NCBI GenBank assembly: GCA_020635235.1
Contig: JACKAF010000003.1
Coordinates: 76,051-140,050 of the forward strand
Origin: Pseudobdellovibrionaceae bacterium
Lineage (GTDB): Bacteria > Bdellovibrionota > FAC87 > UBA2466 > JACKAF01
Direction of reading: 5' to 3'
Length of the DNA stretch: 64,000 nt
The notes beneath the pieces were generated by a model. The model did no database searches, was not told the DNA's origin, and was given only the letters and a program-made list of their open reading frames with translations. Each line of letters starts with the position of its first letter. Positions within the stretch are counted from its first letter, which is position 1. The translations under genes were made by a program, and so were the position numbers. Positions 2,043 to 63,767 of this stretch are shown here, piece by piece.

Positions 2043-2062
2043 GGGTTCCGCGGGCGAGCGGC

Positions 2063-2090
2063 TTGACAGTTGCGGCCTGCTATAGATACT
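2063..2090 (+). promoter_or_regulatory. sigma-70-like promoter candidate for the plus-strand glycan genes
   Basis: TTGACA (2063-2068), 16 nt, GATACT (2085-2090). It is divergent from the promoter candidate at 2014..2042. Confidence 0.35.
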
Positions 2091-2123
2091 CAGATTTTTG
2101 TCCTTTTTTTAGGGATAGCATAC

Positions 2124-3161: not shown

Positions 3162-3167
3162 AGGAGA

Positions 3168-4127
3168 ATGGTGAAGCACACAGTTTTCATACACACAAAT
3201 CGTCAACAGCTGGTGGGTGCCAAGGTCGCCACGCACGCCTTAAAGAAATTTTCACCGACTCCGGAGCGATTCGATGTCCGAATTATCTGCTTGGATGATT
3301 TCCCCCACCTGACAAAACGGGAAGGCCAGGAGTACCTGAGAAAAGGGACCACGGTTCGCTGGAACAACCGCGATCTGCAGTCGTTTAGTCCTCTACGGTT
3401 TCTTCCGCCGCAATTGATGAACTACGAGAAAAGAGCGGTGGTGATGGATCCAGACGTGTTCGCTGTCGCCGACATCTGCGAGCTGCTCGAACGCGACATG
3501 GGCGGCAAGAGTGTTCTTTGTCGTTATGTCGACTCCGGGAGGTACGCCACTAAGCGCCCGTTTTGGGCAACCAGCGTGATGTTGTTGGAGTGTTCCCGTT
3601 TAAGGCATTGGAACTGGGATCGACAGATCGATGAGATGTTCGATAAGAAATTCGACTATGGGGATTGGATAAATCTGCGCCTTGAGGATCCGGCGACTCT
3701 CTCTAAACTTGAAGAGTGCTGGAATTCGTTTGATCATCTAAATGGGGAAACCAAACTACTTCACACAACGGAAAGAAGCACGCAGCCGTGGAAAACAGGA
3801 TTACCCGCGGACTTTGACATGAACTACGAGCGGTCGATTCGCATTGCGGGGCGCAATTTTGTTCCGGGTTATTGGTTGCGCAAGCTGGGCGGTTGGACCC
3901 CATTCGGAAATCACTCTCAAAAAGCCTATCTCCCTCATCCGGATCCGAACCAGGAACGGCTCTTCTTCTCGCTTTTGCGTGAATGTTTGGAAAATGGAAC
4001 GGTTGATGAAGCATTTCTCAGGTCTGAAATGAAAAGTAACCATGTCCGCAAAGACGCATTCAGTCTGGTTGACCGTTCATCTAGCTGGAATTTTGGGGCT
4101 TCAGTTTTGGGAGGAATTCATCCATGA
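3168..4127 (+). CDS. GT-A fold glycosyltransferase, GT8-like (module copy 1, gene A)
   Basis: AAGGAG lies upstream of the ATG. It has a DxD-like VVMDPDVFAV and an SFSPLRFLPPQL motif resembling GT8 enzymes. It is a clear paralog of 4985..5908. Confidence 0.5.
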   Translation: MVKHTVFIHTNRQQLVGAKVATHALKKFSPTPERFDVRIICLDDFPHLTKREGQEYLRKGTTVRWNNRDLQSFSPLRFLPPQLMNYEKRAVVMDPDVFAVADICELLERDMGGKSVLCRYVDSGRYATKRPFWATSVMLLECSRLRHWNWDRQIDEMFDKKFDYGDWINLRLEDPATLSKLEECWNSFDHLNGETKLLHTTERSTQPWKTGLPADFDMNYERSIRIAGRNFVPGYWLRKLGGWTPFGNHSQKAYLPHPDPNQERLFFSLLRECLENGTVDEAFLRSEMKSNHVRKDAFSLVDRSSSWNFGASVLGGIHP

Positions 4128-4960
4128 AAAGCGTTGCCGAGCTCAACAATCTGCACCCAGGTGCGGACATTTACGTTATCGGTACCGGAACCAGTTTTAG
4201 AGTCTTTCCCAAAGACTTTTTCGAGGGCAAGATCACTATTGGGCTGAACTTGGCGTGGCAGTTGCTCCCCGTAACCTATGGGCTGACGACGAGACCGGAA
4301 CTCAACATACCGGAGTTTATCGATCAGAAGGCCCCGAATGAAATTGTGTGGGTTACCAAGTATCACAAGCTAATTACGGAAGAACAACGCGAGCATGGGA
4401 AAAAGCATTTCTACTTTTTCAGATCCGACGGTCAAGCGAACACCCAGCCTCCGGGTGAGCCCAGCGATTCGGGAAAAGTACTAGACTGGGTAAGAAAAAG
4501 CACAGAGGACTACCTTTACTTATGGTCTTCTGTCTCGCAGACGGCAGCCAACCTGGCGGCCAATATGGGTGCACGAAACGTCATTCTGGTGGGTTGTGAC
4601 AACGGGGCACTTGTAGGCAACCACCACGCGCAAAATCAACACACCATGTGGAAGGGGGTAAACCCGGACCACCGCTATCGCCAGTACTATGATGGGTTGG
4701 TGGAAGTGAGGCAGGCGCTGCGCAGTCGAGGCGTAAATTTACTGAGCATGACACCGTTTGTCCATTTGCTGGAACCGACGTTGGACTTTCGTTCTTTGTG
4801 CAAGGAACTCAATTGCCCGGAGTGGATTAATAACTCTGACATCTCAAAAGAGGTCGACGAGATCTACAGTTTACGTGAGAAATTCGGACATTTTATTCAG
4901 CAGAAGCAGAAGTCCGCGCGTAGTAAGTTGAAAAGCTATCTATCTAGAGTCTCTTCTTAG
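4124..4960 (+). CDS. DUF115/MptE-like (Maf / sialyltransferase-like) putative glycosyltransferase (module copy 1, gene B)
   Basis: ATGA start/stop overlap with gene A. Motifs IYVIGTGTSF and AANLAANMGARNVILVGCDNG resemble the DUF115 pattern. It is a paralog of 5905..6708. Confidence 0.45.
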   Translation: MKSVAELNNLHPGADIYVIGTGTSFRVFPKDFFEGKITIGLNLAWQLLPVTYGLTTRPELNIPEFIDQKAPNEIVWVTKYHKLITEEQREHGKKHFYFFRSDGQANTQPPGEPSDSGKVLDWVRKSTEDYLYLWSSVSQTAANLAANMGARNVILVGCDNGALVGNHHAQNQHTMWKGVNPDHRYRQYYDGLVEVRQALRSRGVNLLSMTPFVHLLEPTLDFRSLCKELNCPEWINNSDISKEVDEIYSLREKFGHFIQQKQKSARSKLKSYLSRVSS

Positions 4961-4984
4961 AAACCAAGCTTTAGAAAAGACAGT

Positions 4985-5908
4985 GTGAGAAAACCGACCG
5001 TTTACATTCATACGAACGTCAAACAAATGATTGGCGCACGGCTGGCTGCCTATTCGATGAAAACCCGATCGCGGTCGCCAGACAGTTTTGATGTCGACGT
5101 TATTTGTGCGGAACACGTTGAGTTGCTTCAATCGTTTCACGGTCAGTCCTATTTGCGGGAAGGGCGCCGAGTTCGGTGGGACATCCACGACCTACAATCT
5201 TTCACGCCCCTGCGATTTTTGCCGCCACAGCTGAATGGCTATGAGGGGAGAGCGATCATCACGGATCCCGACGTGTTTGCAGTGGGCGATGTGATGGAAC
5301 TCTTGGCGCGGGACATGAAGGGCAAAAGCATTCTCTGCAAAAAGGTACCCGCTTCGGCGTCCGGGCCCGCCTATTTTGCTTCAAGCGTGATGCTTTTGGA
5401 TTGCTCCAAACTCAAGCACTGGCGGTGGGACGAACAGATTTACGAACTCTTCGACGGGAAGTTTGATTACCGTGACTGGGTCTCGTTGCGACTCGAAGAT
5501 CCTCAGACAATTGGGGAGCTGGAAGCCGAGTGGAACGATTTTGACAGACTAACGAGCGAAACGAGGTTGCTTCACAATACGGGGCGTTTCACACAGCCGT
5601 GGAAGACGGGCCTTCCTATAGACTTTGTTTCGGGCTCCCTTCCCAAGGCAAGTGACAGGAAGTGGGGCGTAGTCCCTAGGGGATGGATTTGGAAAGCAAA
5701 GTCCGTGCTGAAGGGCGAAGACTACCTTCCGCCCGACCGCTACCAAAGGCACCCGGATCCTGTGCAGGAGCGTTTTTTTATGCGCCTCCTTCGAGAGGGC
5801 CTTGAGAACGGAGTGGTTACGGAGGAGTTTTTAACTTCTGAGGTGGAACAAAAACACGTGCGGCCGGACATCTTTAAGGTCCTAAGGGACGTGGGGGCTA
5901 CGGCATGA
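4985..5908 (+). CDS. GT-A fold glycosyltransferase, GT8-like (module copy 2, gene A)
   Basis: Collinear with 3168..4127 (TVYIHTN, IITDPDVFAV, SFTPLRFLPPQL, TQPWKTGLP, HPDPVQERFF). About half of the positions look identical by eye. Confidence 0.5.
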   Translation: MRKPTVYIHTNVKQMIGARLAAYSMKTRSRSPDSFDVDVICAEHVELLQSFHGQSYLREGRRVRWDIHDLQSFTPLRFLPPQLNGYEGRAIITDPDVFAVGDVMELLARDMKGKSILCKKVPASASGPAYFASSVMLLDCSKLKHWRWDEQIYELFDGKFDYRDWVSLRLEDPQTIGELEAEWNDFDRLTSETRLLHNTGRFTQPWKTGLPIDFVSGSLPKASDRKWGVVPRGWIWKAKSVLKGEDYLPPDRYQRHPDPVQERFFMRLLREGLENGVVTEEFLTSEVEQKHVRPDIFKVLRDVGATA

Positions 5909-6708
5909 AGCGCGTCTCCGAACTTTATGGGAAGCACCAGGGAGACGCCATCTACGTAGTGGGTAGTGGTGCCAGTCTCCGAGTTTTTCCAGTGGATTTT
6001 TTGCGCGACAAGATCACCATCGGGCTCAACATGGCTTGGAAGTGGGCTCCGGTTCAGTATGGGATCACTATCCATCCCGAGTTGAACATTCCGGAGTTTC
6101 TGGGCGTGCGCCCGGACTCTCCCATTACATGGATCACAGGCCATGAAAAATGCAAAGGCGGACTGACGGCGGAGCAACTGAAGTTTGCTGAGGAAAACTT
6201 CTACTTTTTCAACTACCACGGAAAACTAAACACGCAACCGGCCAATGAACCTAGTGATTCTGGGCGTGTGCTGGAGTGGGTAGAAAAGCCTGCGGGGGAC
6301 AACCTCTATGTATGGTCCTCCATCGCGCAGGCGGGGGTGAATCTCGCGGCCAACATGGGCGCGCGCGAGATACTACTTGTGGGTTGCGACAATGGACCTT
6401 TGGCGAAGAACCACCACGCTGGTGAACAGCACACGCGTTGGAAAGGGGTGTCGCCGGAGCACCGTTACCGGCAATACCGTGTGGGTTTGCAAGAAATTCG
6501 AGACGTACTGGAAAAGCGCGGCATTACAGTGCTGAGCCTGACTCCATTTTTGGGACTGTCTTCGGCGGAAGAGGAATTTGAAGAGGCTTGTGTGAAAAAG
6601 GGTTTACCCCCTGTCGTAAAGAGTTTTGACATTTCTCCTAGACGTGGACTCAGCGGTTTGTGGGCAAAGATTTATTCCAGGATTAGGGGGCCACTTGGAA
6701 CTGATTAG
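5905..6708 (+). CDS. DUF115/MptE-like putative glycosyltransferase (module copy 2, gene B)
   Basis: Same ATGA overlap with its gene A as in copy 1. Collinear with 4124..4960 (IYVVGSGASLRVFP, KITIGLNMAW, HPELNIPEF, NLAANMGAREILLVGCDNG). Confidence 0.45.
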   Translation: MKRVSELYGKHQGDAIYVVGSGASLRVFPVDFLRDKITIGLNMAWKWAPVQYGITIHPELNIPEFLGVRPDSPITWITGHEKCKGGLTAEQLKFAEENFYFFNYHGKLNTQPANEPSDSGRVLEWVEKPAGDNLYVWSSIAQAGVNLAANMGAREILLVGCDNGPLAKNHHAGEQHTRWKGVSPEHRYRQYRVGLQEIRDVLEKRGITVLSLTPFLGLSSAEEEFEEACVKKGLPPVVKSFDISPRRGLSGLWAKIYSRIRGPLGTD

Positions 6709-7354
6709 CGCCGAACGCCCGTACGAATCTCGCAAGCTGAACCCTCAGCGATTGGAAGCGGTGAGAAAACATGGGGGTGAGTCGGTATTGGATGTCGGTT
6801 GTGGAAACGGAACCTACGTTTTCGCGCTGAAAAACGAGAAACAGATCCGTGGGGTGGACTACCGTTTCTATGAGGAATGGAAAACCGCTCCGGAGTTGTT
6901 TGAAGTTGCTGAGGCGGACGCGCTAAAAGAGTACGCAAACGATAGCATTGATACGATCGTTTCCTTTGAGACTCTCGAACATCTCCCTGATCCGGAGAAA
7001 GCTCTTCGAGAATACCATCGGGTGTGCCGCCACAATATCGTTGTAACGGTTCCCAACTGTGCGATCACCCCGGGAATTAAAAAAAGCAATTTGCTCTACT
7101 CCCACTGGAGCGATCCGTCCCATCTAAACTTTTTTACATTGGATTCTTTGAAAGCCCTCATTGAAAGTGCGGGTTTTTCCATAAAAGAAGCGCACTACAT
7201 TAACCGCTTGGACGTGAGGCCCTTCGTATTGGAAGCGTTCAAGCTGCGGGGACCTTTAGCGAAGGTCCTATCGAAGGTCCTGCGACTTCTGCCGTCCGAA
7301 TCTTATTTCATCACCTGCCTCGTTGTGGCGGAAAAGCGAGCCCAAGGTGCTTAA
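6695..7354 (+). CDS. class I SAM-dependent methyltransferase
   Basis: ORF 6626..7354 carries motif I VLDVGCGNGTY. The in-frame TTG at 6695 is preceded by AGGGGG, which avoids an 83-nt overlap with the previous gene. Confidence 0.65.
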   Translation: MELISAERPYESRKLNPQRLEAVRKHGGESVLDVGCGNGTYVFALKNEKQIRGVDYRFYEEWKTAPELFEVAEADALKEYANDSIDTIVSFETLEHLPDPEKALREYHRVCRHNIVVTVPNCAITPGIKKSNLLYSHWSDPSHLNFFTLDSLKALIESAGFSIKEAHYINRLDVRPFVLEAFKLRGPLAKVLSKVLRLLPSESYFITCLVVAEKRAQGA

Positions 7355-8402
7355 CTTGACGAAAAGAATCTTGGGAGCGCCCATTAAGCGGGTGCGCCCC
7401 GAGTTTGCCTACTTGCCGGCGCGAGCGATCAGTCGACTATACGGATCGGAACCCTCTGGGGTTCCCGTAGCTTTTGTGGTTCCTGAGGGTTCGCAGGGCT
7501 GGATTCTTGAAGGGATTTGCAGAGAAATTGCCCGCTACATGCCCGCGAGTAGTTATGTCTTTCATGACTCTCTTCGAAGGCTTCCGGATGCACAAAGTTA
7601 CTACGTGGCCCACTATGCACTTGTGCCCGAACTTCTGAAACTTAACCCGCGGGCCTGGAACCGGAGGATCTACACTTGGTTTACCCATCCGGACAAACGC
7701 TTGTGCCAAAGAGAAATGGTTTATTCGCTCAACTGTACAGAGAAAGTCTTCTGTACGAATACCGTGTTTGCACACCAGCTCAAACTTTCTGGAGTTGCGG
7801 AAGAAAAAATTGAAGTGGTTTTGGGCGGTGCCGATCCCGCGCGTTTCCGCCGGCATGAAAGAGGCTCCGGGCTCATCGGCCTCTGTACTGCCTATTACGA
7901 TCGCAAGCGCCCCGATCTCATGCTGCGCTTGATTCAGTCGATGCCACAGCAGCCATTTCTGCTGCTAGGAAAAGGCTGGCAGGAGTGGCCGGGCTTCCCG
8001 CACCTACTCGCGTTGCCGAATTTCAAATATGCCGAGGCCCAGTACGAAGATTACCCCAGTTACTACGATCAGATGGACGTTTTCCTAAGTGTGTCGGCGC
8101 TGGAGGGCGGGCCGATTCCGATGTTGGAAGCCATGATGAGCAACGTGGTCCCCGTCGTCAGCCGCACCGGATTTGCCCACGACATCATTAAACAAGGACG
8201 CAACGGCTTCATCTTTGATATAGAAGCGCCGCCTGAGGAAATCGCTTCTTTTATCAACCAGGCCTTGCAGCTCAAAGCGGACATCCGGTCCACGGTGATG
8301 CGCTACAGCTGGGAGGCTTTTTCCGCACAAATTCAACGGGCTCTGCACGTATTGCCCGAGCGTGTAGGCGCCCCTTCGGCTCCTCTTCCTCAAGGGATAT
8401 AG
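7323..8402 (+). CDS. GT-B fold glycosyltransferase (GT4/group 1-like)
   Basis: C-terminal EGGPIPMLEAMMSNVVPVVSRTGFAHDIIKQGRNGFIF matches the E-x7-E region of GT4 enzymes. The start is uncertain (7323, 7347 or 7356). Confidence 0.7.
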   Translation: MWRKSEPKVLNLTKRILGAPIKRVRPEFAYLPARAISRLYGSEPSGVPVAFVVPEGSQGWILEGICREIARYMPASSYVFHDSLRRLPDAQSYYVAHYALVPELLKLNPRAWNRRIYTWFTHPDKRLCQREMVYSLNCTEKVFCTNTVFAHQLKLSGVAEEKIEVVLGGADPARFRRHERGSGLIGLCTAYYDRKRPDLMLRLIQSMPQQPFLLLGKGWQEWPGFPHLLALPNFKYAEAQYEDYPSYYDQMDVFLSVSALEGGPIPMLEAMMSNVVPVVSRTGFAHDIIKQGRNGFIFDIEAPPEEIASFINQALQLKADIRSTVMRYSWEAFSAQIQRALHVLPERVGAPSAPLPQGI

Positions 8403-10030
8403 AAAGTTTCAAAGCGGCTATCTTGATATTGGAGTTCCGTGTGCTGTTTCAGGAATTCGCGGTACTCGACAGCGGTGGGTCCAGGCAGGCGCGTTTTGTC
8501 GAGAACAAGGTAGCGCAAGCCGGTCTTTTTCACGAGGGGCAGCTCGGCGGCATTCTTGGTTTTCAATAGCCGCAGGACGGTTTCTCGAAGTTGCTGGTTA
8601 TCAGGTGGCATGAAGCCCGCGTAGCCGTTTGCAATCGGGTGGTTGTGATCCAGGCTATAGTACATGTAGTCGGCTTCTGCTTCGTGCAGTCCTTCGTAAA
8701 TATAAAAAACGGGAAATCGATTCTCAGTAGCTTTTAGAAAAGCAGTATTCCCATTAAAATCCGGTACAAGCTGAATCGGTATCTGTACCTGCGTATCCAA
8801 CCAAAACACCAGGCCCAAAAGGAGTCCCGCTGCTGCTAGCTGCTTTTTGCTAAGTCTTTCGTTTAGCACGTAACCGCCATAGGCCGCTGCGATGGCGACG
8901 AGAAAAAGCAGCGACAAGCCGAATCTAGCGGGGACTCGAATCCCGCTCATGCCGGGGACAATATAGAAAAGCAGATTATAAAGGCCGGCATTGGTACCCC
9001 AAGCGAGCAAGGTCAAAAATACGGCGCTCGTCACACAAACCCTGAACCAGTAGCGCGCCTCGGGGCTATGTCTTGAGTATTGTCGGAACTTTCTAAAGCC
9101 TAGAAACGCCAACAGAAAGACGCTGAATCCAAAGAATAAACACTTCTCGTGACGCGCACCCTCCTGGTAGCGGATGAAGGGCGCAAAAACACCTGCGTAG
9201 CGGTGGCGTTCAGGAACGACCAGAAAACCTTTGATGTTCGTGCTGTAGGGCCGCGCCTCACCCACGGACCGTTTCCAATTGTTGTCTTTGCTGACGCGGT
9301 AGTAGGAATAGGAAATAGGCAGGCTTACGGCTGCAAAGCTTGCGATGGCAAGCGCATAACCCTTCGCCTTGCGCCAGTCTCGTTCTTTCAGTAAGGAGTG
9401 GAGCTCAAAAGCCGCGAGGGGAAGAATGCTGAGCATCAACATCAATCCTAAATTGACGCTGAAATAGAACTGCAAGGCCAGACAGGTCCCTACAGAAAAG
9501 GCATAAGACCATTTTCTGGTCTCTTGGAACTTAAAAAGAGCATAGAAAAAAAACGGAAATCCAAATTGGGGGATCATGTGGGCGTGCCCAATCTGAGAGA
9601 GGCGGCTGAGGCTGAAAGCGAACACCGTCGCGGCAATGGCCGCTGCGTACTCATTTAGGAACAACTTCACAAAAAAGAACATGCAGCGGTAGTTCAGCCA
9701 AAAAAGAAAAAGAATAGTCAGGTTGTAAGAAAGGGCTCTATTCTGAACCAATAAGAAAAACGCGTGGTAGATCAGCGAACAGCCGAAAGTGGTTTCTGAG
9801 GAAAGCAGGCTCTCCGTATAGGGATAAAAGGCTCTCCCATCAAAAAGGGGGTTATCCGAAAAGAAGTTGCCGCTAAGCCGATCCCAAATCCAAATGAAGG
9901 AAAGCTCATCCGGAAGGATATCGCCGATAAGAGCTGTTCCCAGGTGTGTCCAAGACCCAACCGGCGCAAGAAATAGAGCGATCCCCAGCAAGGGAGGAAC
10001 CCAAAGGAGGAGAGTCGTTCTGAGTCTCAT
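8390..10030 (-). CDS. polytopic inner-membrane protein, possible GT-C-type glycosyltransferase
   Basis: 546 aa with many hydrophobic spans over the first ~400 aa and a soluble C-terminal domain. It overlaps the next GT-C-like gene by 4 nt. Confidence 0.45.
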   Translation of the reverse strand: MRLRTTLLLWVPPLLGIALFLAPVGSWTHLGTALIGDILPDELSFIWIWDRLSGNFFSDNPLFDGRAFYPYTESLLSSETTFGCSLIYHAFFLLVQNRALSYNLTILFLFWLNYRCMFFFVKLFLNEYAAAIAATVFAFSLSRLSQIGHAHMIPQFGFPFFFYALFKFQETRKWSYAFSVGTCLALQFYFSVNLGLMLMLSILPLAAFELHSLLKERDWRKAKGYALAIASFAAVSLPISYSYYRVSKDNNWKRSVGEARPYSTNIKGFLVVPERHRYAGVFAPFIRYQEGARHEKCLFFGFSVFLLAFLGFRKFRQYSRHSPEARYWFRVCVTSAVFLTLLAWGTNAGLYNLLFYIVPGMSGIRVPARFGLSLLFLVAIAAAYGGYVLNERLSKKQLAAAGLLLGLVFWLDTQVQIPIQLVPDFNGNTAFLKATENRFPVFYIYEGLHEAEADYMYYSLDHNHPIANGYAGFMPPDNQQLRETVLRLLKTKNAAELPLVKKTGLRYLVLDKTRLPGPTAVEYREFLKQHTELQYQDSRFETFYIP

Positions 10031-11547
10031 TTCCTAAGCCAGAAGTAGGAATTGGGGAGTTTGTGTCCCCAAACCACCGTAAAACCTTCCACATCTTTTA
10101 CTTGAAAAGAGACACCTTCGGCGCGTAAACGATCCAAAAAAGCCTGCACGTGCTCAGGTTTTTCGGAAAAGAAAATCTCAGCCCGATCGGGATCGGCATC
10201 TACCGCCTCGCGGTATTTGTGATAGCGCTCTTGCTCCGGGTTTCGGGAAACCACAATAGGATCTTCATCAAAGAGATAGGTGAGCTGATACGCTACCCAA
10301 TAGTCGGACAGGGCGTGGTGGATATTATTGGCGGTCAGAAAATCCTCAAGCGCCGCGACTCGTTTACCAAAGTGCCGTTGAACGGGTGGGTAACAAACCC
10401 AGATGATGGCACCCACCGTCAGGCTAAACCAGGAAAAGACAGCAGCGAATCTTAGTCGGCCAATCTTCCAGGCGACTGGGGCGAGAAGAAACGGAGCCCC
10501 CCAATAGATAGGCGTCATGTAGCGCGACGACCACATGTCGACGGCAACTGGAGATCCTGCGGTAGCAAGAATGCTGGTGAATATCGAGAGGCCGCCGAAA
10601 ATTCCGATGCGGCGCAGACCCTCCGGCAGAGTCTTATCCCGCCAGCATAGGTACAGGCCATAGAAGAACCCGGCGAAGAGTACGAGCCCGGTAAGCGTCA
10701 GTAATATCCCCCAAGCCAGACGCTCCCGCGTTCCCGGGATGAGGTTCCAGTTGAGGCCCATGATATGCACAAAGGCCGAGTAGAAAACTTCATAGTGTTT
10801 GGCACTGAAGAGAGTTTTTAGAGAAAAAGTCAGCGGCGCCTTCTGGGCTAAAGACATACGAACCAGGAGTAAGAGAATTCCACCGGAGCCAAATCCGTAG
10901 AGAAACGGTAGAGCTGGCTTGTAATTAGAGAGTTTTCGCCGGTCCTCTACCAGGCAAAGAGCGGCGTAGACGAAAGTCGCCGCTAAGAACTGAATGGCAT
11001 AGAAGTCGAGGTAGTGGGCGAACGCAATCAAACAACCTGCAAAAAAGAGGCTTCCTTTCCTGGGTGCTTGGGCATTTCGTTCCAAGATTAGGACAGAAAG
11101 AAACATGACAGTGATCGACCATTGCCGGAAGGGGTACAGGTTAATGGTCAGTACATCCTCGGGCACGAAGATATAAAACAGGCAGAGGAAGAAGCAGGTT
11201 ACGGGATCCAGGTAGCGTCGGAAGAGGGCTAGACTGATAGTAATCAGTGCAATGAGTCCCAGGAGTGGCTCCATCATCAGCACGACGGGCGAGTCTCCAA
11301 ATACCTTGAATAGGGCCCCGATGGCGAGAGGCTCCACAACCCCTTGATAGGAGGATCCCCAGAGGTGCCAAAACCATTCCCCCGCCCACATTCTTTTGGC
11401 CTGTAGGGCGAGGAAGGCGAAGTCCGAGTTCACCTCGGCGGCATTCATCAAAAACGGGAGTCGGTAAATAAGGATAAGCGCTACGACCAGAATCCAGATG
11501 GGCAGCCAAGATCGAGAAAGCAGAGGGTTCGATTGGCGTGTTTGCAT
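10027..11547 (-). CDS. GT-C family glycosyltransferase (ArnT/PMT-like)
   Basis: 506 aa, polytopic. The N-terminal region (IYRLPFLMNAAEVNSDFAFLALQAKRM...) resembles ArnT/PMT_2 enzymes. Confidence 0.5.
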   Translation of the reverse strand: MQTRQSNPLLSRSWLPIWILVVALILIYRLPFLMNAAEVNSDFAFLALQAKRMWAGEWFWHLWGSSYQGVVEPLAIGALFKVFGDSPVVLMMEPLLGLIALITISLALFRRYLDPVTCFFLCLFYIFVPEDVLTINLYPFRQWSITVMFLSVLILERNAQAPRKGSLFFAGCLIAFAHYLDFYAIQFLAATFVYAALCLVEDRRKLSNYKPALPFLYGFGSGGILLLLVRMSLAQKAPLTFSLKTLFSAKHYEVFYSAFVHIMGLNWNLIPGTRERLAWGILLTLTGLVLFAGFFYGLYLCWRDKTLPEGLRRIGIFGGLSIFTSILATAGSPVAVDMWSSRYMTPIYWGAPFLLAPVAWKIGRLRFAAVFSWFSLTVGAIIWVCYPPVQRHFGKRVAALEDFLTANNIHHALSDYWVAYQLTYLFDEDPIVVSRNPEQERYHKYREAVDADPDRAEIFFSEKPEHVQAFLDRLRAEGVSFQVKDVEGFTVVWGHKLPNSYFWLRK

Positions 11548-39476: not shown

Positions 39477-39481
39477 GAAAG

Positions 39482-39554
39482 TGGAGGCGAGGGGGATCGA
39501 ACCCCTGACCCCTAGCTTGCAAAGCTAGTGCTCTCCCAGCTGAGCTACGCCCCC
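39482..39554 (-). tRNA. tRNA-Ala (anticodon TGC)
   Basis: Reverse complement GGGGGCGTAGCTCAGCTGGGAGAGCACTAGCTTTGCAAGCTAGGGGTCAGGGGTTCGATCCCCCTCGCCTCCA folds as a cloverleaf with a G3:U70 pair. No encoded CCA. Confidence 0.9.
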
Positions 39555-58108: not shown

Positions 58109-58181
58109 GGGCCGCTAGCTCAGTCGGTAGAGCACCTCCCTTTTAAGGAGGGGGCCGTTGGTTCGAGTCCAACGCGGCTCA
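58109..58181 (+). tRNA. tRNA-Lys (anticodon TTT)
   Basis: GGGCCGCTAGCTCAGTCGGTAGAGCACCTCCCTTTTAAGGAGGGGGCCGTTGGTTCGAGTCCAACGCGGCTCA folds as a cloverleaf with anticodon loop CTTTTAA. No encoded CCA. Confidence 0.9.
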
Positions 58182-58272
58182 CTTTAAAGTCTAAGTAGGG
58201 ACTCGTTCCCTTCGGGGTCGAGTCCAACGCGGCTCACTTTAAAGTCTAAGTAGGGACTCGTTCCCTTCGGGG
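58163..58272 (+). repeat. perfect 2 x 55-bp tandem repeat: last 19 nt of tRNA-Lys plus 36-nt trailer
   Basis: 58163-58217 and 58218-58272 are identical (tcgagtccaacgcggctcactttaaagtctaagtagggactcgttcccttcgggg). The unit starts at T-loop position 55. Confidence 0.95.
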
Positions 58273-58386
58273 TACCCAAGTTTCTCTCCCTTAACACATG
58301 TAACCTGCATTTTTGCTCTGGCGTGGTGTCTGCGCTGAAGAGCGTTTTTAATCATAATATAGAGGTCCAAAAAACTAGGGGGCGAT

Positions 58387-59172
58387 ATGCGATTCCTTTC
58401 GGTTGTGATGCTGTTTTTGGCGATTGGCGTTAATGCGCGGGCGGAGCGCGGCTTGGATGCGCTGCGCGGGGAATACCCAATTCTTGAGTATGATGGGGAC
58501 ACCTTAGCTTCTGGGTACGTGCAGATAATCTCCGATGAAAACGTGATCGGCGTGTACGTCAGTGGATTGGCTCTGGCTTCACGGCCAGCCCTCAACCTGA
58601 GCGTTCTTACCCCCTCAGCGAATACCGATGTCTCGGAGGACTCCGATCGGGTTACCCAGCGGTACAGTGATGGCCGCGGTTCTTCAAGAATAGAGTACAC
58701 GCGCCACACGGGTTATCTGGAGATCCAAACAGAAGTCTGCGTCGAAGGTGACGGCTGTGAACGCAATACGATCTTTGCGGGTCAAACCGGCTCTCCGGGG
58801 ACAGAAATCGATTACGATACGTTTTTTCTCGCGACGGCGGGGATGTACAAGATTCAATCGGCCGGCGGGGCACCTCCAAAACCGGAGAATGAAGGGGCCA
58901 TCGTCGACGGGAACTTCGGCTATCTTATGCTTCCCTACTGCGAACCAGGTGGCGCGTGCAATCCGGGATATATTTTTGTCGATCGAGCCTCCACCCGTTT
59001 CTTCCGTCGGGAAGGCACTGCCGGGACTCAGTTGGATATGGTGCTAAGCCAAAACGGAGCCGTTCGTTACTACAGTTGGACGGAGCGAGGGGACGGTGAA
59101 GTTTTGTTTCGGGATTTCCAGTACCGTCTAAACGAAGCCCGCGTCTGCATGGAGCACGTGCTCATCCGCTAG
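58387..59172 (+). CDS. secreted hypothetical protein
   Basis: Signal peptide MRFLSVVMLFLAIGVNARA. No recognisable domain. Confidence 0.55.
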   Translation: MRFLSVVMLFLAIGVNARAERGLDALRGEYPILEYDGDTLASGYVQIISDENVIGVYVSGLALASRPALNLSVLTPSANTDVSEDSDRVTQRYSDGRGSSRIEYTRHTGYLEIQTEVCVEGDGCERNTIFAGQTGSPGTEIDYDTFFLATAGMYKIQSAGGAPPKPENEGAIVDGNFGYLMLPYCEPGGACNPGYIFVDRASTRFFRREGTAGTQLDMVLSQNGAVRYYSWTERGDGEVLFRDFQYRLNEARVCMEHVLIR

Positions 59173-59174
59173 TT

Positions 59175-59639
59175 TTACCAGCGGTGGTAGGCGGGGTGTC
59201 CGGGCGTTACCGCAACGAAAACACCTTCGCACAAGGCACAGGTTTTTCCACCTGCGATTAACTCCGCTTTGATGGTTGCCTTGTCGTCGCTAGAGTCCAC
59301 CACACGAGAAACGAGTTCCACCTTGCCAGACGTTGGCGTCGGTCTAAGCAGCTTGATGCTATAGCTTGCGGTTACCGTACAAGGTGGTGTGGCGGCTTTT
59401 GTTTTTTGCATCAGGTGCCAAGCTGCGGTCCAGTTGGAATGGCAATCCAATAAGGCTCCAACGATCCCACCGTTCAGTACCCCCGGGAACGCCTCATATT
59501 TTTTTTGAGGGGACCACACCGCTCGGACCTCATCTCCCACAACAAAACTCTTTATTTGCAGGCCTTCCCCATTGGATGGGCCGCAGCCAAAACATTCGTT
59601 GTGAGGGGCATACTTGTCTTGAAGGGCTTGGTTTTCCAC
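59175..59639 (-). CDS. hotdog-fold thioesterase (PaaI-like) with N-terminal CxxC
   Basis: NECFGCGPSNGEGLQ and PGVLNGGIVGALLD are typical of PaaI/4HBT-type thioesterases. GTG start follows GGAG. Confidence 0.7.
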   Translation of the reverse strand: MENQALQDKYAPHNECFGCGPSNGEGLQIKSFVVGDEVRAVWSPQKKYEAFPGVLNGGIVGALLDCHSNWTAAWHLMQKTKAATPPCTVTASYSIKLLRPTPTSGKVELVSRVVDSSDDKATIKAELIAGGKTCALCEGVFVAVTPGHPAYHRW

Positions 59640-59666
59640 GATCTCCGCCCAGAAGGTTTGGGCAGG

Positions 59667-59759
59667 GAACGAATCACCGCCCTAAAAACTGGGCGGTAAG
59701 GGATTCGACCGCGAAGCGAACGAATCACCGCCCTAAAAACTGGGCGGTAAGGGATTCGA
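59667..59759 (-). repeat. 2 x 42-bp perfect direct repeat (51-bp period): last 19 nt of tRNA-Arg plus 23-nt trailer
   Basis: 59667-59708 and 59718-59759 are identical (plus strand gaacgaatcaccgccctaaaaactgggcggtaagggattcga), separated by a 9-bp spacer. In tRNA sense the unit starts at T-loop position 55. Confidence 0.95.
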
Positions 59760-59814
59760 ACCCCTGACCCCGTGGTTCGAAGCCACGTGCTCTATCCAAC
59801 TGAGCTAACCGCCC
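59741..59814 (-). tRNA. tRNA-Arg (anticodon TCG)
   Basis: Reverse complement GGGCGGTTAGCTCAGTTGGATAGAGCACGTGGCTTCGAACCACGGGGTCAGGGGTTCGAATCCCTTACCGCCCA has anticodon loop CTTCGAA. No encoded CCA. Confidence 0.9.
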
Positions 59815-60595: not shown

Positions 60596-62578
60596 GTGAG
60601 CGGACCGGACACACAAAAAGCGCAAGTACCCATCAAGTACAAATTCTTGGCGGTGTTATTTTCGATCATGATCACGTGTCTCAGTGTGTTCTTTTTCTAC
60701 GCCTTTCAAACCTTCTCCGAAGACAAGCGCATGTTCATCATGGACTTGAACCTTAGCTTGTTAAAAGCCGCAACTGCCGAAGTGCGATCCGGAATCGAAC
60801 ACCGTTTGGAAGCTGTGCAGGGTTTGATCCCTCGTGTCTACAACCGCGTCGGGGGATCCAACACCGATTCTGACATCTATGCCGGTTTACCCGAGAGTTT
60901 GAAAAGCGAAGTACTTGGGGTGAACTTCTATAGGGAAAACCAGCAGGGCGCTTTTGAATCTATTCGTTCGTACAACAATACCGAGCTACTTGGAAAACTC
61001 ACACTTCCCGCGAACTTTTCGCAGGTTTTGGATTCGCGGCTGCCACCACCGCTGCAACTTTTTAAGAACAAGAAGAATTTTGAACTCCTCAATCGTTCCA
61101 TCATGCTGGAGGTGGGCGGCAAACAAGTTAAGACGGGCGTCTTGACGGTTCTTTTTAGCGGGAAATTTATTGATAGAAACTCTACTGGGGTCGTAATTGT
61201 CGTCGATTTCGTGCAAGATTTCATCCGTAGCGTTTTGAATAAGTCCGGCGTAGCAGAAGTCTTCCTGATCCGTTCGGATGGCCGTGTTTTGGGACATCCA
61301 AATTTGGATACGCTCATCCAGTACGCCAACCAGGCGTTTCCTCATCCGGTGGTGTCTCGTTTGAAGTCTGCGACGTTCCCGCGTGAAAGTATTGAATTGG
61401 ATGTTAACGGAGAGGATTATCTTTGCAACATCGGTGAGTCCGGATTTCCTGACGTCTTTTTCATCTCACAAGTTCAAAAAAGGCAGGCGTTTGTTGCGCT
61501 TTATCACCTGGCGTCCCAGAGTTTGATGATCATGGGCATTCTCCTTTGCCTTTCGATTATAGCTAGTATCATTTTCACCAATCGCTTGACTGTGAATATT
61601 ACGAAGCTTCAAAGTGCGGCTGAAGAAATTGGCAAAGGTAATTTGAACCTTAGTCTAAACGTTAAATCCAACGACGAATTGCAGAGCGTTGCCGAGAGTT
61701 TCGAGTGGATGTCCTCGCGCTTGTCTGATCTAATTTTTGAAACCGCCAAAAAAGCACGCTTGGAAGGCGAGCTAAAGACCGCGCGATTAGTACAGTCGAC
61801 GTTACTGACGATCCCGCGAATTGCCACCGATGATGTGGAAGTTGATTCTCATTTGGTGCCGGCAACGGATTTAGGGGGCGACTTTTGGGACGCTTATCTC
61901 ACAGGCCGGACGCTGACCATCATTATCGGTGATGCCACTGGTCACGGGGCCCCAGCCGCCTTGGTGACGGCGATCGCAAAAAGTTGTTTTTCGACACTGA
62001 ATACCGTGTACCACGCTCACCCGCTGGAGCCCGAACAGGTCACCTCTGCTTTGAACTTCATTTTGCACAGCAGTTGCCAGGGAAAACTCCTGATGACCAT
62101 GTGTATCATCCAAATCAACTTAGATACCGGGGAGATAGGTATCTGTAATGCAGGACACGAGTCTCCGATGGTGCTCCGAGCAAGTTCCTCAAGCTCAGAT
62201 GGTACAGCATCCGATAAGAAGGCTAAGAAAGCTGAGATCCTTTTTGCACGAGGCGAACGCTTAGGTTTTTCTCCGGAGGCCGAGTTCAAGACTGTGAAAT
62301 TTCAGCTAAATCCCGGTGACACGCTCATGCTCTACACCGACGGCATTACGGAAGCGAAAAGTCGGCAGGGCAAAGAGTGGGGAGAGCGCCAGTTGAGGAA
62401 AGTGTTCTCTGCGGGGGGCGAGCGGGCGCTCAGCCAGATCAAGAAAGAGCTCGTTGGTGCGGTTGGTACTCACATGGGTGGAGCCGAACAGGAAGACGAC
62501 ATCACCTTTGTATTGATCAAGTGGCTTGGGAAGCACGCTAAAAAGGCGACTCCCCCGCTTCCAAAGAAGGTGGGATAG
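60596..62578 (+). CDS. membrane sensor PP2C-type phosphatase (periplasmic domain + HAMP + SpoIIE/RsbU-like)
   Basis: Two TM spans flank a ~270-aa extracytoplasmic region. HAMP region (ITKLQSAAEEIGKGNLN). PP2C motifs GGDFWDAY, GDATGHGAPAAL and YTDGITEA. Confidence 0.85.
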   Translation: MSGPDTQKAQVPIKYKFLAVLFSIMITCLSVFFFYAFQTFSEDKRMFIMDLNLSLLKAATAEVRSGIEHRLEAVQGLIPRVYNRVGGSNTDSDIYAGLPESLKSEVLGVNFYRENQQGAFESIRSYNNTELLGKLTLPANFSQVLDSRLPPPLQLFKNKKNFELLNRSIMLEVGGKQVKTGVLTVLFSGKFIDRNSTGVVIVVDFVQDFIRSVLNKSGVAEVFLIRSDGRVLGHPNLDTLIQYANQAFPHPVVSRLKSATFPRESIELDVNGEDYLCNIGESGFPDVFFISQVQKRQAFVALYHLASQSLMIMGILLCLSIIASIIFTNRLTVNITKLQSAAEEIGKGNLNLSLNVKSNDELQSVAESFEWMSSRLSDLIFETAKKARLEGELKTARLVQSTLLTIPRIATDDVEVDSHLVPATDLGGDFWDAYLTGRTLTIIIGDATGHGAPAALVTAIAKSCFSTLNTVYHAHPLEPEQVTSALNFILHSSCQGKLLMTMCIIQINLDTGEIGICNAGHESPMVLRASSSSSDGTASDKKAKKAEILFARGERLGFSPEAEFKTVKFQLNPGDTLMLYTDGITEAKSRQGKEWGERQLRKVFSAGGERALSQIKKELVGAVGTHMGGAEQEDDITFVLIKWLGKHAKKATPPLPKKVG

Positions 62579-62580
62579 CC

Positions 62581-63300
62581 GTGTTGGGTGCGCTTAAAAA
62601 GAAAAGGCCGCTCACCGCTTATGGTCTTTTTTCAAAGCCGGAAGCGGCGGAAAAGATTTTCGGTGGAGCCCGGCACGTGCATTCCTCGAACCTGGGTGCG
62701 CACGATCCGCTGGTTCAATTGACCGAGAGCGGAAATGGCCTGGGCGGGGAGTTCCGTTTCCCTTGGGAGTTGGCCGCCGAGGCAAGATACGTGGACGTGC
62801 AATCCGCAGAGGATCGGCACCGGGTTTTGAAAGATTTTTTGCATGGATTGGGCTCGGAGGTCCATCGAACGTTCAAGGACGTTGTGGGCACAGTATTGGA
62901 AGAGCTTATTAGCAATGCGATTTATCATGGTTTGAGGTTGGAGAACGGGGAGCGGAAGTTCGCAAGACTTCAAAAACCGCGGCTCCAGCCGAGTGAATAT
63001 ATAAAGGTAGGAACGGTGGCAGCACCTGACGGAGTTTATCTCAGGGTAGAGGACTCCGGTGGTCGCCTGGGTTTCGATGAAATCCGGGAGGCCTTTCACC
63101 GTTGTTATCAGCAAGGTGTGGATCAGATTCAGCAAAAGGAATGTGGAGCTGGTCTCGGACTTTATATGTCTTTCGAACAGGCGAGGCACCTGAGAATAGA
63201 TGTATGGCCTGGGAAGAAAACAGTGGTTTCATGCTGGATAAACCGAAAAAGAGTCCCTAACGAGGATAATTTTTCATTCAACTACTTTGAACGCACGTGA
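62581..63300 (+). CDS. GHKL ATPase-fold protein (RsbW/SpoIIAB-like kinase) with ~100-aa N-terminal extension
   Basis: N-box VLEELISNAIYHG, G1 EDSGGRLG, G2 GAGLGLYM. GTG start follows GAAGGTGGGA. Confidence 0.6.
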   Translation: MLGALKKKRPLTAYGLFSKPEAAEKIFGGARHVHSSNLGAHDPLVQLTESGNGLGGEFRFPWELAAEARYVDVQSAEDRHRVLKDFLHGLGSEVHRTFKDVVGTVLEELISNAIYHGLRLENGERKFARLQKPRLQPSEYIKVGTVAAPDGVYLRVEDSGGRLGFDEIREAFHRCYQQGVDQIQQKECGAGLGLYMSFEQARHLRIDVWPGKKTVVSCWINRKRVPNEDNFSFNYFERT

Positions 63301-63767
63301 ATATTACTAACGACAGATTCAAGATAGTCCGAGCGGAACACGAGGGCCGAATCGTATTCTATCTCCAGGGCGACATTGACGAGGACGCCGTCTTCGATCA
63401 AATCGCTCAGGAGTCGGGCGAGGTGATTATCAATTGGAAGGGCGTTACGTCCATCAACTCCTGTGGAGTGCGCAACTGGGTCAATTTCATCAAGACCGTG
63501 GCGGATCGTACGATTTACTACATAGAATGCCCGCCCCTAGTCGTGAAACAGATGAACATGATTCCCAGCTTTCTCGGGACGGCTACCGTTTATTCTGTTT
63601 ATGTCCCCTACGTCTGCGATAATTGCGACGCCGAAAAACTTGTACTCGTTACCGCGGAAAAATTTGGCTCGGTAGAGGAAACCATACAGTGCGATCAGTG
63701 CCAATCTCCTGAAATGGAGCTCGACGGGCATCCCAAGCACTACTTTACTTTTGGGAGGGCGAAATGA
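63297..63767 (+). CDS. STAS-domain (anti-sigma antagonist-like) protein fused to a C-terminal Cys4 zinc-ribbon
   Basis: FYLQGDID...INWKGVTSINSCGVRNW...PPLVVKQMNMIPSF fits the STAS pattern, including the phospho-acceptor-position Ser. The C-terminus has CDNC-x22-CDQC. Confidence 0.6.
   Translation: MNITNDRFKIVRAEHEGRIVFYLQGDIDEDAVFDQIAQESGEVIINWKGVTSINSCGVRNWVNFIKTVADRTIYYIECPPLVVKQMNMIPSFLGTATVYSVYVPYVCDNCDAEKLVLVTAEKFGSVEETIQCDQCQSPEMELDGHPKHYFTFGRAK

Follow-up and report, generated by a model that had tools for sequence, protein, structure and literature searches.

Two tRNA genes face each other near one end of the window, as we call the whole 64,000-nucleotide stretch of DNA that was analyzed. 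tRNA-Lys(UUU) lies on the plus strand at positions 58109 to 58182 (ARAGORN; Rfam, 70 bits; sequence), and tRNA-Arg(UCG) lies on the minus strand at 59741 to 59814 (ARAGORN, Rfam, and sequence). Neither gene encodes its CCA, a feature common to all tRNAs seen in the clade, so endonucleolytic processing of their 3′ ends is obligatory. Both genes are trailed by partial copies of themselves. As the original prediction stated, each duplication begins at the boundary between tRNA positions 54 and 55 and copies 19 tRNA nucleotides: positions 55 to 73 recur with 19 of 19 identities at 58218 to 58236 (plus strand) behind tRNA-Lys and, on the minus strand, from T55 at 59708 to A73 at 59690 behind tRNA-Arg. 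The Arg copy is also present in an independent assembly (L017). The third tRNA gene of the window, tRNA-Ala at 39481 to 39554, has no such repeat or module structure, and no further copies of tRNA 3′ ends were found above chance in the window; in the flanks of relatives the search returned only a weak match with four errors inside an open reading frame (ORF) (L006, 1946 to 1967).

Behind tRNA-Lys, the native 3′ segment (R, T55 to A73; 58163 to 58181) is followed on the plus strand by the trailer CTTTAAAGTCTAAGTAG (t1, 58182 to 58198; sequence and repeat detection) and by a junction module at 58199 to 58217 that was recognized from the sequence, the fold, and a covariance model. The module consists of an anti-T-loop arm, GGACTCG, and a spacer, TT-CCC-TTC-GGG-G, and the first 7 to 8 nucleotides of the copied segment (R′) form the 3′ arm of its hairpin. 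A second copy of the trailer (58237 to 58253) and a second complete module (58254 to 58272) fill positions 58237 to 58272, with a covariance model match at 58252 to 58285; this module has no tRNA copy 3′ of it. The adjoining TACCCAAGT (58273 to 58281, plus strand) may be the relic of an older, decayed tRNA 3′ copy; it aligns with the decayed copy TCATAGCCCAGCGTGGCGCTCAT of a related genome, BC2.86, at the same site before the conserved flank TTCTCTCCCTTAACAC. Seen as a repeat, the array is a 55-nt unit in tandem (58160 to 58214 and 58215 to 58269) with 98% identity, the sole difference being T54 versus G.

The Arg array runs on the minus strand. Its native R segment (59759 to 59741) is followed by the trailer GTTTTTAGGGCGGT (59740 to 59727) and the module GATTCG-TT-CGC-TTC-GCG-G (59726 to 59709), which together span 59709 to 59740 and were assigned by sequence, fold, and covariance model; R′ again supplies the 3′ arm of the hairpin. 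A second trailer (59689 to 59676) leads into a truncated, CCC-type module, GATTCGTTCCCT, of the second unit (59675 to 59664), and then into GCCCAAACCTTCTGGGCGG (59663 to 59645), which is probably the relic of a third copy and its trailer. The array contains a 45-nt repeat (59715 to 59759 and 59664 to 59708) at a spacing of 51 nt, and BC2.86, when aligned with it, is without the 32 nt of the truncated module and the GCCCAAACCTTCTGGGCGG relic.

These arrays share one layout: tRNA positions 1 to 54, then n units of the form R-t-A-S, then R′-t′ and the flank, where R is tRNA 55 to 73, t is the local trailer, A is the anti-T-loop arm (GGT)GA-N-TCG, and S is the spacer TT-CSC-TTC-GSG-G. The general module, GA-N-TCG TT CSC TTC GSG G, pairs with the copied T-loop. 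The hairpins proposed originally, GGACTCG TT CCC TTC GGG GT CGAGTCC for Lys (58199 to 58225) and GATTCG TT CGC TTC GCG GT CGAATC for Arg (59726 to 59702, minus strand), match the sequence exactly, and both occur in the predicted minimum-free-energy folds. A degenerate 25-mer, searched with up to three mismatches, hits only these two sites in the window and none in 100 shuffles. The N of the module always complements the T-loop base and takes three states (C:G, T:A, and A:T), while the inner stem exists in two versions, CCC/GGG or CGC/GCG. Overall, pairing holds in 95% of the hairpin cells; one position shows three types of pair and another shows two, and the stem positions T.T and T.G are invariant. 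The GGTGA part of the module is unpaired in Lys and Thr. The compensatory changes had been taken as a sign of selected structure; the covarying pairs are real, but they do not by themselves establish selection, since template switching creates and repairs hairpins with apparent compensatory changes and yields double changes in one step (PMC8794818).

The module occurs behind tRNA-Lys, tRNA-Arg, tRNA-Thr(CGU), and tRNA-SeC across the window and two related Bdellovibrionota metagenome-assembled genomes, HKST-UBA01 and BC2.86, and all four kinds of array share the junction S-GG|T55. The 20-nt junction is identical in Thr and Arg, and likewise in Lys and SeC. Since the same module stands behind two further tRNA genes in relatives, with N tracking the T-loop base, the architecture shared by Lys and Arg is not a coincidence, and the search behind other tRNAs bore out the prediction. 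In the 171 kb searched with a covariance model, all matches with E<0.01 lay at the 3′ flanks of tRNAs. With Rfam covariance models, at gathering thresholds and at E≤10, the tRNAs alone scored.

An exact-pattern scan of a genome collection returned five true loci plus one chance match in coding DNA of Natrinema. The same scan gave two matches in the JGI metagenome collection, both in sequence without a tRNA nearby and taken as chance, and none in IMG/VR viral contigs. When the units were compared by blastn with 50,697 phage genomes, only chance matches, in coding regions, came up. In viral contigs, the generic pattern of T-loop, anti-T-loop, and T-loop picked up for the most part neighboring full-length tRNA genes in phage tRNA arrays; the sixth such viral locus (L027), where AGTCGAATC motifs recur close to a tRNA-like 3′ end, has a different architecture. 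The tRNA-Arg trailers of two outgroups (L019 and L020) are plain and carry no module, and tRNA-Arg of HKST-UBA01 is also plain, without the repeat. The arrays are restricted to a small Bdellovibrio-like clade, and we found no described counterpart of such recurrent site-specific duplication in the full-text literature.

Behind each affected tRNA gene there are from one to three extra copies, a number that differs between assemblies of one species and is uncertain in its exact value because the assemblies are of short reads. Thr arrays have two to three copies (three in HKST-UBA01), a contig of the window species (L008) holds at least one Lys unit more than the window, and L017 shows a strain variant. 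The units lie head to tail, are 49 to 55 nt long, and are 98 to 100% identical; identical head-to-tail units that vary in copy number are what a slippage-type tandem repeat looks like. Several contigs terminate exactly at unit boundaries. Within a genome, proximal and distal trailers are near-identical (Thr, AAYTTYTAAGG; Arg, GTTTCTT(G)AGGCGG; SeC, GTTATTTTYGGTGAATCG), whereas orthologous trailers of different genomes share 40 to 77% identity overall and 47 to 67% for Lys. The duplicated DNA is therefore local and not imported, and the 17 to 36 nt that separate the copies are paralogous to the host's own trailer. Decay is seen in distal units, namely, the Lys copy and module of BC2.86, its second SeC copy, and the truncated second Arg module of the window.

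Against these variable trailers the module stands out. In three orthologous comparisons it is 95 to 100% conserved (59/60 nt), compared with 40 to 77% for the adjacent trailers and 84 to 86% for the intergenic flank; the Lys module of the window is identical to that behind tRNA-Lys of HKST-UBA01, and its Arg module matches that of BC2.86 at 20 of 20 positions. Because the module is conserved while the neighboring trailers diverge, the pattern suggests purifying selection, i.e., function, rather than a neutral scar. An intrinsic terminator is not the explanation: a T-stem/acceptor copy and no T-run follows the hairpin, and a terminator scan calls none at the modules, the extended Arg fold being the sole one that ends beside a T-run. 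The same scan placed a terminator-like hairpin with a T-run 3′ of the Lys array at 58332 to 58345 (plus strand), with a core, GCGTTTTTAATCA, kept in all three species and a variable upstream stem arm. As this site lies downstream of the array, the array would be part of the primary tRNA-Lys transcript. We also considered the spacer as an inside-out T-arm derived from the local T-stem and rejected the idea, as its versions mismatch their present hosts. CCC/GGGG fits the Arg T-stem and CGG the Thr T-stem, an unproven hint of transfer among tRNA loci.

Between the two tRNA genes lie a lineage-restricted secreted protein of 261 aa (58387 to 59172, plus strand) and a hotdog-fold thioesterase of 154 aa (59175 to 59639, minus strand; weak Pfam match to 4HBT_2) that is codirectional with tRNA-Arg; both are context, outside the repeat system. 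Only three homologues of the secreted protein were found among 5.8 billion proteins, all in the clade and all adjoining tRNA-Lys. The repeats had been thought to bracket a 1.4-kb two-gene segment that might be present or absent as a unit. Gene order speaks against this: the thioesterase directly abuts a repeat-free tRNA-Arg in an outgroup (L020), all three species have the secreted-protein gene, and HKST-UBA01, with its plain tRNA-Arg, keeps the secreted-protein gene and is missing the thioesterase alone. Each repeat set sits between its own tRNA gene and the two protein genes, and beyond those genes there is no further copy. Judging from the relatives, the convergent tRNA-Lys/tRNA-Arg layout is ancestral synteny and the place of the thioesterase beside tRNA-Arg is ancestral as well. 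A genomic island bounded by the two tRNAs is thus contradicted by synteny, and its repeats would come from different, convergent tRNAs; the arrays do not delimit a mobile two-gene island.

There is no integrase or foreign DNA between the copies, and Pfam detected no integrase or transposase in 30 window ORFs of at least 180 aa or in 9 flank ORFs of relatives, many ORFs having no Pfam hit at all. The precomputed Pfam lists of the fetched contigs, including the called genes of one sibling contig, contain none either, and no HUH domain occurs among the Pfam-scanned ORFs of the 64 kb of the source genome. Gene content at the tRNA 3′ ends does change: between conserved flanks on the 3′ side of tRNA-Thr, the genes differ and occupy 2.1 kb in one case and 4.0 kb in the other, and the thioesterase deletion of HKST-UBA01 falls exactly at the end of tRNA-Arg. 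By this comparison, the tRNA 3′ flanks of the clade are rearrangement hot spots that appear prone to breakage.

We postulate a clade-specific tandem partial duplication of tRNA 3′ ends by a T-loop-directed process at the DNA level, followed by slippage expansion and distal decay, an explanation to which we give even chances. The founder event would have placed A-S and a fresh copy, starting from exactly T55, behind the tRNA gene. We infer that a nick, break, or strand exchange specific to the T54/T55-C56 edge of the T-loop's palindromic TCGA set it off; the likeliest agent would be a recombinase or nuclease that targets the T-loop, or else template switching by a polymerase at the T-arm hairpin. 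The resulting direct repeats of about 50 nt would then expand, contract, and homogenize by slipped-strand mispairing or unequal exchange, which would leave units identical within a genome and variable in copy number. Distal units, lacking an anchor in the selected tRNA gene, would decay or be truncated. The pairing of A with the T-loop and of CSC with GSG would be properties of a DNA palindrome, kept by templating or constraint.

Several points weigh against this explanation. No responsible enzyme was identified in the 64 kb of the source genome or in about 110 kb of relatives. A local mechanism alone leaves a near-identical 20-nt module, including the unpaired GGTGA, at four unrelated tRNAs unexplained; for this, the loci must have shared a template or passed the sequence on in some way, and the module may have spread between different tRNA genes. 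The near-perfect conservation of the module beside diverging trailers, with the function that it suggests, also counts against a neutral scar. Invariant T.T and T.G are not expected from ongoing palindrome correction; RNA tolerates them. Classical integrase recombination, for its part, would leave kilobases between the copies, compared with some 30 nt here. A more specific formulation, which we hold only tentatively, is that an undescribed DNA transaction directed at the T-loop has the module as its footprint or its moving part, or else that hairpin and tRNA 3′ half form a functional pre-tRNA trailer device. In the former case, a miniature element or an enzyme (candidates are a recombinase, an HUH nuclease, or a Cas1-like integrase) would cut tRNA genes at T54/T55, copy the next 24 to 36 bp in the manner of an unusually long "target duplication," install the self-complementary junction, and work on several kinds of tRNA gene within a single Bdellovibrionota clade.

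An alternative hypothesis, which we regard as rather unlikely, is that the arrays are under selection as an RNA element in the 3′ trailer of the pre-tRNA. The A-S hairpin, paired with the T-loop copy, would then act at the RNA level, possibly to block a 3′ exonuclease, to signal processing, or to serve as a decoy that spares the real T-loop from the anti-T-loop arm, and the duplication would only have supplied the partner strand. The conservation of the module relative to its surroundings, the extent and variety of the pairing, and the predicted transcription of the Lys array are all consistent with such an element, as are the invariant U.G wobble, which is acceptable in RNA and a mismatch in DNA, and the obligatory endonucleolytic processing of tRNAs without an encoded CCA. 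The Arg unit is predicted to fold at −22 kcal/mol (z = −4) into an acceptor/T-like minihelix that ends at the discriminator, but this minihelix is confined to Arg, and the Lys and Thr units fold like shuffled sequence (z = −0.5 to −0.9). The element is also dispensable, being decayed at tRNA-Lys of BC2.86 and absent at tRNA-Arg of HKST-UBA01, at tRNA-Ala of the window, and in all outgroups; in the SeC array of BC2.86 the inner spacer is swapped for a non-hairpin variant. Function would explain neither the tandem amplification nor the precise junction at T55, and the element matches no Rfam family.

We consider it improbable that the A-S-R′ stretches are instead attR-type junctions, each left by a phage or island that had entered through a crossover in the T-loop and whose body was afterward deleted. 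The form of the repeat fits: it starts in the T-loop at T55 and includes A73 and the trailer in Lys, Arg, Thr, and SeC, the block of identity expected from a T-loop crossover, and Williams's 2002 survey of integration-site sublocations in tRNA genes reportedly describes such T-loop-to-3′-end blocks. No kilobase-scale foreign DNA with an integrase separates full and partial copies; their interval of only 17 to 36 nt is a paralogue of the host trailer, and the same trailer/module junction (GG|TGA) everywhere would demand identical, precise interior deletions many times over. Neither an integrase nor a distal att copy was found, and no attP with the module was found in IMG/VR or, beyond chance hits, among the phage records. 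The variable gene content directly distal to the Thr array would suit a history of integration, as would the polarity of decay, since newer insertions displace older copies distally (bioRxiv 10.1101/2020.12.28.424599). Partial tRNA copies are a known integration signature (PMC9897764), and in mycobacteriophage Ms6 the recombining attB core lies in the T-loop of tRNA-Ala (PMC1762012).

Least probable are independent slippage or template-switch accidents that used no dedicated machinery, served no function, and gave like products because the same hairpin and palindromic TCGA are available in every T-arm: the tandem units, the variable copy number, the junction microhomology (GG|T), a spacer resembling stuttered T-loop copies (TCG-TTCGC-TTCGC-GG-TCGA), and the extension of the Arg and SeC A arms as inverted tRNA 3′ copies (GGGCGGT..GATTCG and GGTGA..ATCG(AACC)) would fit, but accidents would not yield an identical 20-nt junction in Thr and Arg or in Lys and SeC, the inner stem is uncorrelated with the local T-stem, and the restriction to a small clade and the above-neutral conservation argue for something specific.

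Partial tRNA copies are routinely taken as the borders of mobile elements, and here the same signature, with essentially nothing between the copies, occurs at four or more tRNA genes, joined by a conserved palindromic junction matched to the T-loop in each case. If the T-loop-directed duplication that we favor is the work of a dedicated mechanism, it would be a new route of tRNA gene targeting and remodeling, and it could account for the gene flux hot spots at the tRNA 3′ flanks of the clade. Should the hairpin instead serve as a trailer device, it would have consequences for the 3′ maturation of tRNAs that do not encode CCA. The arrays also break short-read assemblies and can mislead island-finding and tRNA annotation software.

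Among known systems, the att repeats of prophages, integrative and conjugative elements, and islands share with these arrays a tRNA 3′-end repeat that runs from a loop through the discriminator into the trailer, an intact gene on the proximal side with older copies distal and decaying, and a position at gene content hot spots (PMC9897764; bioRxiv 10.1101/2020.12.28.424599). Known cases have 9 to 23 kb or more of foreign DNA and an integrase between the copies, whereas here there are 17 to 36 nt of local trailer and a conserved 20-nt palindromic module, in up to three head-to-tail units, with the integrase absent. Template-switch (quasipalindrome) mutagenesis likewise produces inverted copies of neighboring sequence and two-sided "compensatory" changes in one step (PMC8794818), but its events are idiosyncratic; here the same junction, with its invariant T.T and T.G mismatches, stands at four genes and is conserved across species. 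REP/REPIN sequences are also short, GC-rich, imperfect palindromes in 3′ intergenic DNA, and GTAG precedes the Lys module of the window. A genome carries REPs by the tens to hundreds, dispersed and with no tie to tRNAs; our module was confined to tRNA 3′ flanks in the 171 kb searched with the covariance model, which revealed no multitude of dispersed extragenic copies, a tRNA copy supplies half of its stem, and its other instances are without GTAG. In form only, and with no membership claimed, CRISPR repeat duplication offers an analogy: a polarized array in which a "repeat" of about 24 to 36 nt by a fixed "leader" (tRNA 1 to 54) is duplicated along with an insert of about 20 nt and whose terminal repeat is degenerate, although here all "spacers" are the same self-derived palindrome, the repeats are locus specific, and no cas genes were seen. 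Minisatellite-like repeats share the head-to-tail units of 49 to 55 nt, homogenized within a genome and variable in number between strains or assemblies, but here the unit boundary is fixed at a functional tRNA coordinate and the first repeat lies within the gene itself.

The two hairpins reported in the original prediction, downstream of tRNA-Lys (58199-58225) and tRNA-Arg (59726-59702), are present exactly as described; they are the only two sites in the window that match a degenerate 25-mer, which had no match in 100 shuffles, and the predicted folds contain both. At tRNA-Lys(UUU) (58109-58182, + strand), a 55-nt unit occurs twice in tandem (58160-58214 and 58215-58269) and consists of tRNA positions 55 to 73, the trailer CTTTAAAGTCTAAGTAG, and a 19-nt module, GGACTCG-TT-CCC-TTC-GGG-G. 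At tRNA-Arg(UCG) (59741-59814, - strand), the trailer GTTTTTAGGGCGGT is followed on the minus strand by the module GATTCG-TT-CGC-TTC-GCG-G, a perfect copy of tRNA positions 55 to 73 (59708-59690), the trailer again, and a truncated module, GATTCGTTCCCT. In both arrays, the first arm of the module is complementary to the first 6 to 7 nt of the copied T-loop. Elsewhere in the window, matches to the 3' end of either tRNA do not exceed chance, and the window's third tRNA, tRNA-Ala (39481-39554), is without any comparable structure. None of the three genes encodes the 3' CCA, and each has a T-rich trailer. The tRNAs of the relatives are alike in both respects, so all must depend on endonucleolytic 3' processing and CCA addition.

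A scan of 185,579 species-representative genomes for the exact pattern GANTCGTTCNCTTCGNGGTCGANTC returned six loci. Five belong to two related Bdellovibrionota MAGs and lie directly 3' of a tRNA: tRNA-SeC, tRNA-Lys, and tRNA-Thr(CGU) in HKST-UBA01 (the last with three 3'-end copies) and tRNA-Thr(CGU) and tRNA-Arg(UCG) in BC2.86. The sixth, within a Natrinema gene (L005 6726-6750), is a palindrome that arose by chance in coding DNA. The 25-nt palindrome has another chance occurrence, also in coding DNA, at L012 250-274, where it appears to encode ...RLVLFGVES... in what we take, from the translated sequence alone, to be a radical-SAM gene. The JGI metagenome collection gave two exact matches, neither near a tRNA, and these were likewise read as chance; viral contigs held no exact match. 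The palindrome pattern is thus not diagnostic without its tRNA context. The scan also undercounts, because it missed a variant array at BC2.86 tRNA-SeC that we found through a neighboring gene; this array retains the outer stem (GGTGAATCG/CGATTC) and has the spacer TTCGCTCGCTACGCTCCCGG, a decayed second copy, and the distal trailer GGTGAATCGAACC.

The clade is small: for the secreted protein whose gene lies between the two window tRNAs, just three homologues exist among 5.8 billion proteins, all from these species. In a fourth lineage (PlsY 70% identical), the sole contig stops exactly at the trailer/module boundary 3' of tRNA-Arg, the appearance expected of an assembly break caused by a repeat. 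When a covariance model of the hairpin was run over 171 kb (the window plus 12 loci), it scored all known instances as well as the SeC variant and the truncated terminal modules, but no other site.

Every array fits one arrangement, in which tRNA positions 1 to 54 are followed by n units of R-t-A-S and then by R'-t' and the flank. Here, R is T55-A73 and R' its extra copy, t is a trailer of 7 to 17 nt and t' the trailer after R', A is the anti-T-loop arm (GGT)GA-N-TCG, and S is the spacer TT-CSC-TTC-GSG-G; A and S together form the module. The base N complements T-loop position 59 and takes three states: C with GAG loops (Lys and Thr), T with GAA (Arg), and A with GAT (SeC). The inner stem is CCC/GGG in Lys and SeC and CGC/GCG in Thr and Arg. 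Across six distinct sequences, 95% of the stem cells are paired, and no shuffle matched the observed covariation. The junction S-GG/T55 is identical at all four tRNA species. The claim of a shared, non-coincidental architecture is therefore upheld: the hairpin covaries, and the same module lies 3' of other tRNAs in relatives, a test that the original prediction had itself proposed.

The duplicated DNA is local, because the proximal unit and the distal, ancestral copy have matching trailers within one genome. This holds for HKST-UBA01 tRNA-Thr (AATTTCTAAGG versus AACTTTTAAGG), BC2.86 tRNA-Arg (GTTTCTTGAGGCGG versus GTTTCTTAGGCGG), and BC2.86 tRNA-SeC (GTTATTTTTGG versus GTTATTTTCGG); orthologous trailers from different genomes share just 40 to 77% identity, with indels. 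The R copies at tRNA-Thr number two in BC2.86 and three in HKST-UBA01, and a contig of the window species (L008) has one Lys unit more than the window, with the reservation that arrays fragment assemblies and MAG copy numbers are therefore uncertain. One trailer differs in strain L017. Short-read contigs from several public assemblies begin or stop exactly at Lys or Arg unit boundaries (L008 1-130, L009 1-30, L010 1-70, and L018 1-11), and L010 also carries a variant module that lacks 1 nt (GGGACCGTTCCC).

Distal units are degraded. BC2.86 has a single extra Lys copy, which is degenerate (TCATAGCCCAGCGTGGCGCTCAT) and follows a decayed module (GGGTTTCGTTCCCTTCGAGG); it occupies the place of TACCCAAGT in the window, immediately 5' of the conserved flank. 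The distal Arg unit of the window is truncated and is followed by a probable remnant that is missing from BC2.86. The module is more conserved than its surroundings in three of five comparisons: identity is 19/20 for Lys (window versus HKST-UBA01) and 20/20 for Thr (BC2.86 versus HKST-UBA01) and Arg (window versus BC2.86), compared with 84 to 86% in the Lys downstream intergenic flank. In the other two, it is only 84% (Lys, window versus BC2.86) and 61% (SeC).

The two genes between the window tRNAs, which encode the lineage-restricted secreted protein (58387-59172, +) and a hotdog-fold thioesterase (59175-59639, -), had been viewed as a segment bracketed by the repeats, a reading that synteny does not support. 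In one outgroup (L020; PlsY 60% identical), the thioesterase gene directly follows tRNA-Arg, with no module and no copy, and another (L019) has a plain tRNA-Arg trailer; the thioesterase gene beside tRNA-Arg is thus ancestral, and the module and copy were inserted between them later. In HKST-UBA01, tRNA-Arg is plain, its 3' end directly adjoins the secreted-protein gene, and the thioesterase gene is missing, whereas BC2.86 has the complete Lys-secreted protein-thioesterase-Arg order. The HKST-UBA01 secreted-protein orthologue (L002 5311-6129) has 272 aa versus 261, its frame extends into the opposite-strand tRNA-Arg 3' end (L002 6102-6177), and the thioesterase gene has been lost exactly up to the end of the tRNA.

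The DNA just beyond the arrays is unusually variable, which hints at past breakage or recombination at these sites. At tRNA-Thr(CGU), BC2.86 and HKST-UBA01 have common genes on both sides, with unrelated genes straight after the array: 2.1 kb in BC2.86 (L003 3580-5715; an unknown 314-aa protein and a 2OG-Fe(II) oxygenase) versus 4.0 kb in HKST-UBA01 (L006 670-4716; a 480-aa unknown, an XRE-type HTH protein, and a DAO oxidoreductase). Neither region showed an integrase or a distal att copy. Within the 480-aa ORF, 1.3 kb downstream of the array, TTGAAGTCCGGTCGTGCAGGCT (L006 1946-1967) resembles the tRNA-Thr 3' end (4 edits, 10-nt exact core) and could be a decayed att copy or chance. The SeC neighborhood is also rearranged. 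Scans of the flanks of all loci, of 30 window ORFs, and of the contig gene lists revealed neither an integrase nor a transposase. Elsewhere in the window, a partner-switching-type regulatory cluster downstream of plsY (60596-63767; a HAMP-SpoIIE [PP2C] phosphatase, a HATPase_c kinase-like protein, and small ORFs) is conserved in BC2.86 and the outgroup, and positions 1-11500, with methyltransferase and glycosyltransferase genes among several ORFs without a Pfam match, are probably a surface-polysaccharide locus.

We favor a DNA-level origin, to which we give an even chance. A founder event would have installed A-S and a new copy starting at T55. In four different genes the coordinate stays the same, on the edge of a palindrome, TCGA (T55-A58). 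This points to the T-loop as the target of a site-specific nick, break, or strand exchange, or else to a polymerase that switched at the hairpin of the T-arm. The ~50-nt direct repeats would then expand, contract, and homogenize through slippage, and distal units would decay. Slippage turnover and distal decay are directly supported; the founder event we infer. The anti-T-loop arm resembles a short stretch of the neighboring tRNA 3' part copied in inverted orientation, longer in Arg (GGGCGGT..GATTCG) and SeC (GGTGA..ATCG(AACC)), which fits a "there-and-back" template switch. Purely local models explain neither why unrelated tRNAs carry a nearly identical 20-nt module, with a GGTGA that pairs with nothing in Lys or Thr, nor why the inner stem does not match the host T-stem (GGGG suits Arg and CGG suits Thr; Arg carries CGC, and Lys and SeC carry CCC). 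These features imply that the module was transferred from one tRNA locus to another or had a common template. That a previously undescribed T-loop-directed mechanism or device underlies the arrays is possible, if doubtful.

The compensatory changes had been taken to argue for a selected structure or a common recombinase or mobile-element origin. The covariation is present, but it is weak evidence for RNA selection because template switching can co-mutate palindromes (PMC8794818). A selected pre-tRNA trailer structure would account for the conservation and for the RNA-compatible U.G and U.U positions, but would not explain why the module is dispensable, why the Lys and Thr folds are weak, why the spacer varies at SeC, or how amplification arose, and we consider it unlikely. 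The suggested decoy role of the duplicated copy is speculative. Deletion scars of classical integrative elements would agree with the polarity and with the coordinate in the T-loop, but not with identical junctions or with DNA of local origin between the copies; we consider them improbable. Independent slippage accidents are the least probable, as they could not produce the same junction four times. The explanations are not fully exclusive, and a DNA-level origin with later constraint is plausible.

No Rfam family matched the module. A canonical intrinsic terminator was rejected because no T-run lies 3' of the hairpin; a separate terminator-like site lies downstream of tRNA-Lys (58332-58345), and all three species conserve its GCGTTTTTAATCA core. 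The 171-kb covariance scan likewise rejected a REP-like dispersed repeat. No phage attP carrying the module was found among viral contigs and phage genomes; one IMG/VR viral contig (L027 2263-2531) has repeated AGTCGAATC motifs beside a tRNA-like 3' end (...CCACCA), a different, att-like arrangement unrelated to the module. A full-text literature search found no description of hairpin-joined tRNA 3'-end arrays. The nearest published case is that of partial tRNA genes at the ends of 9- to 23-kb integrated elements (PMC9897764), and in accretion at tRNA hot spots, newcomers displace older partial tRNAs distally (bioRxiv 10.1101/2020.12.28.424599). The arrays described here are also partial tRNA 3'-end repeats, but unlike the known ones, they are joined by hairpins, carry essentially no cargo, occur in tandem, and recur at several tRNAs of one clade.
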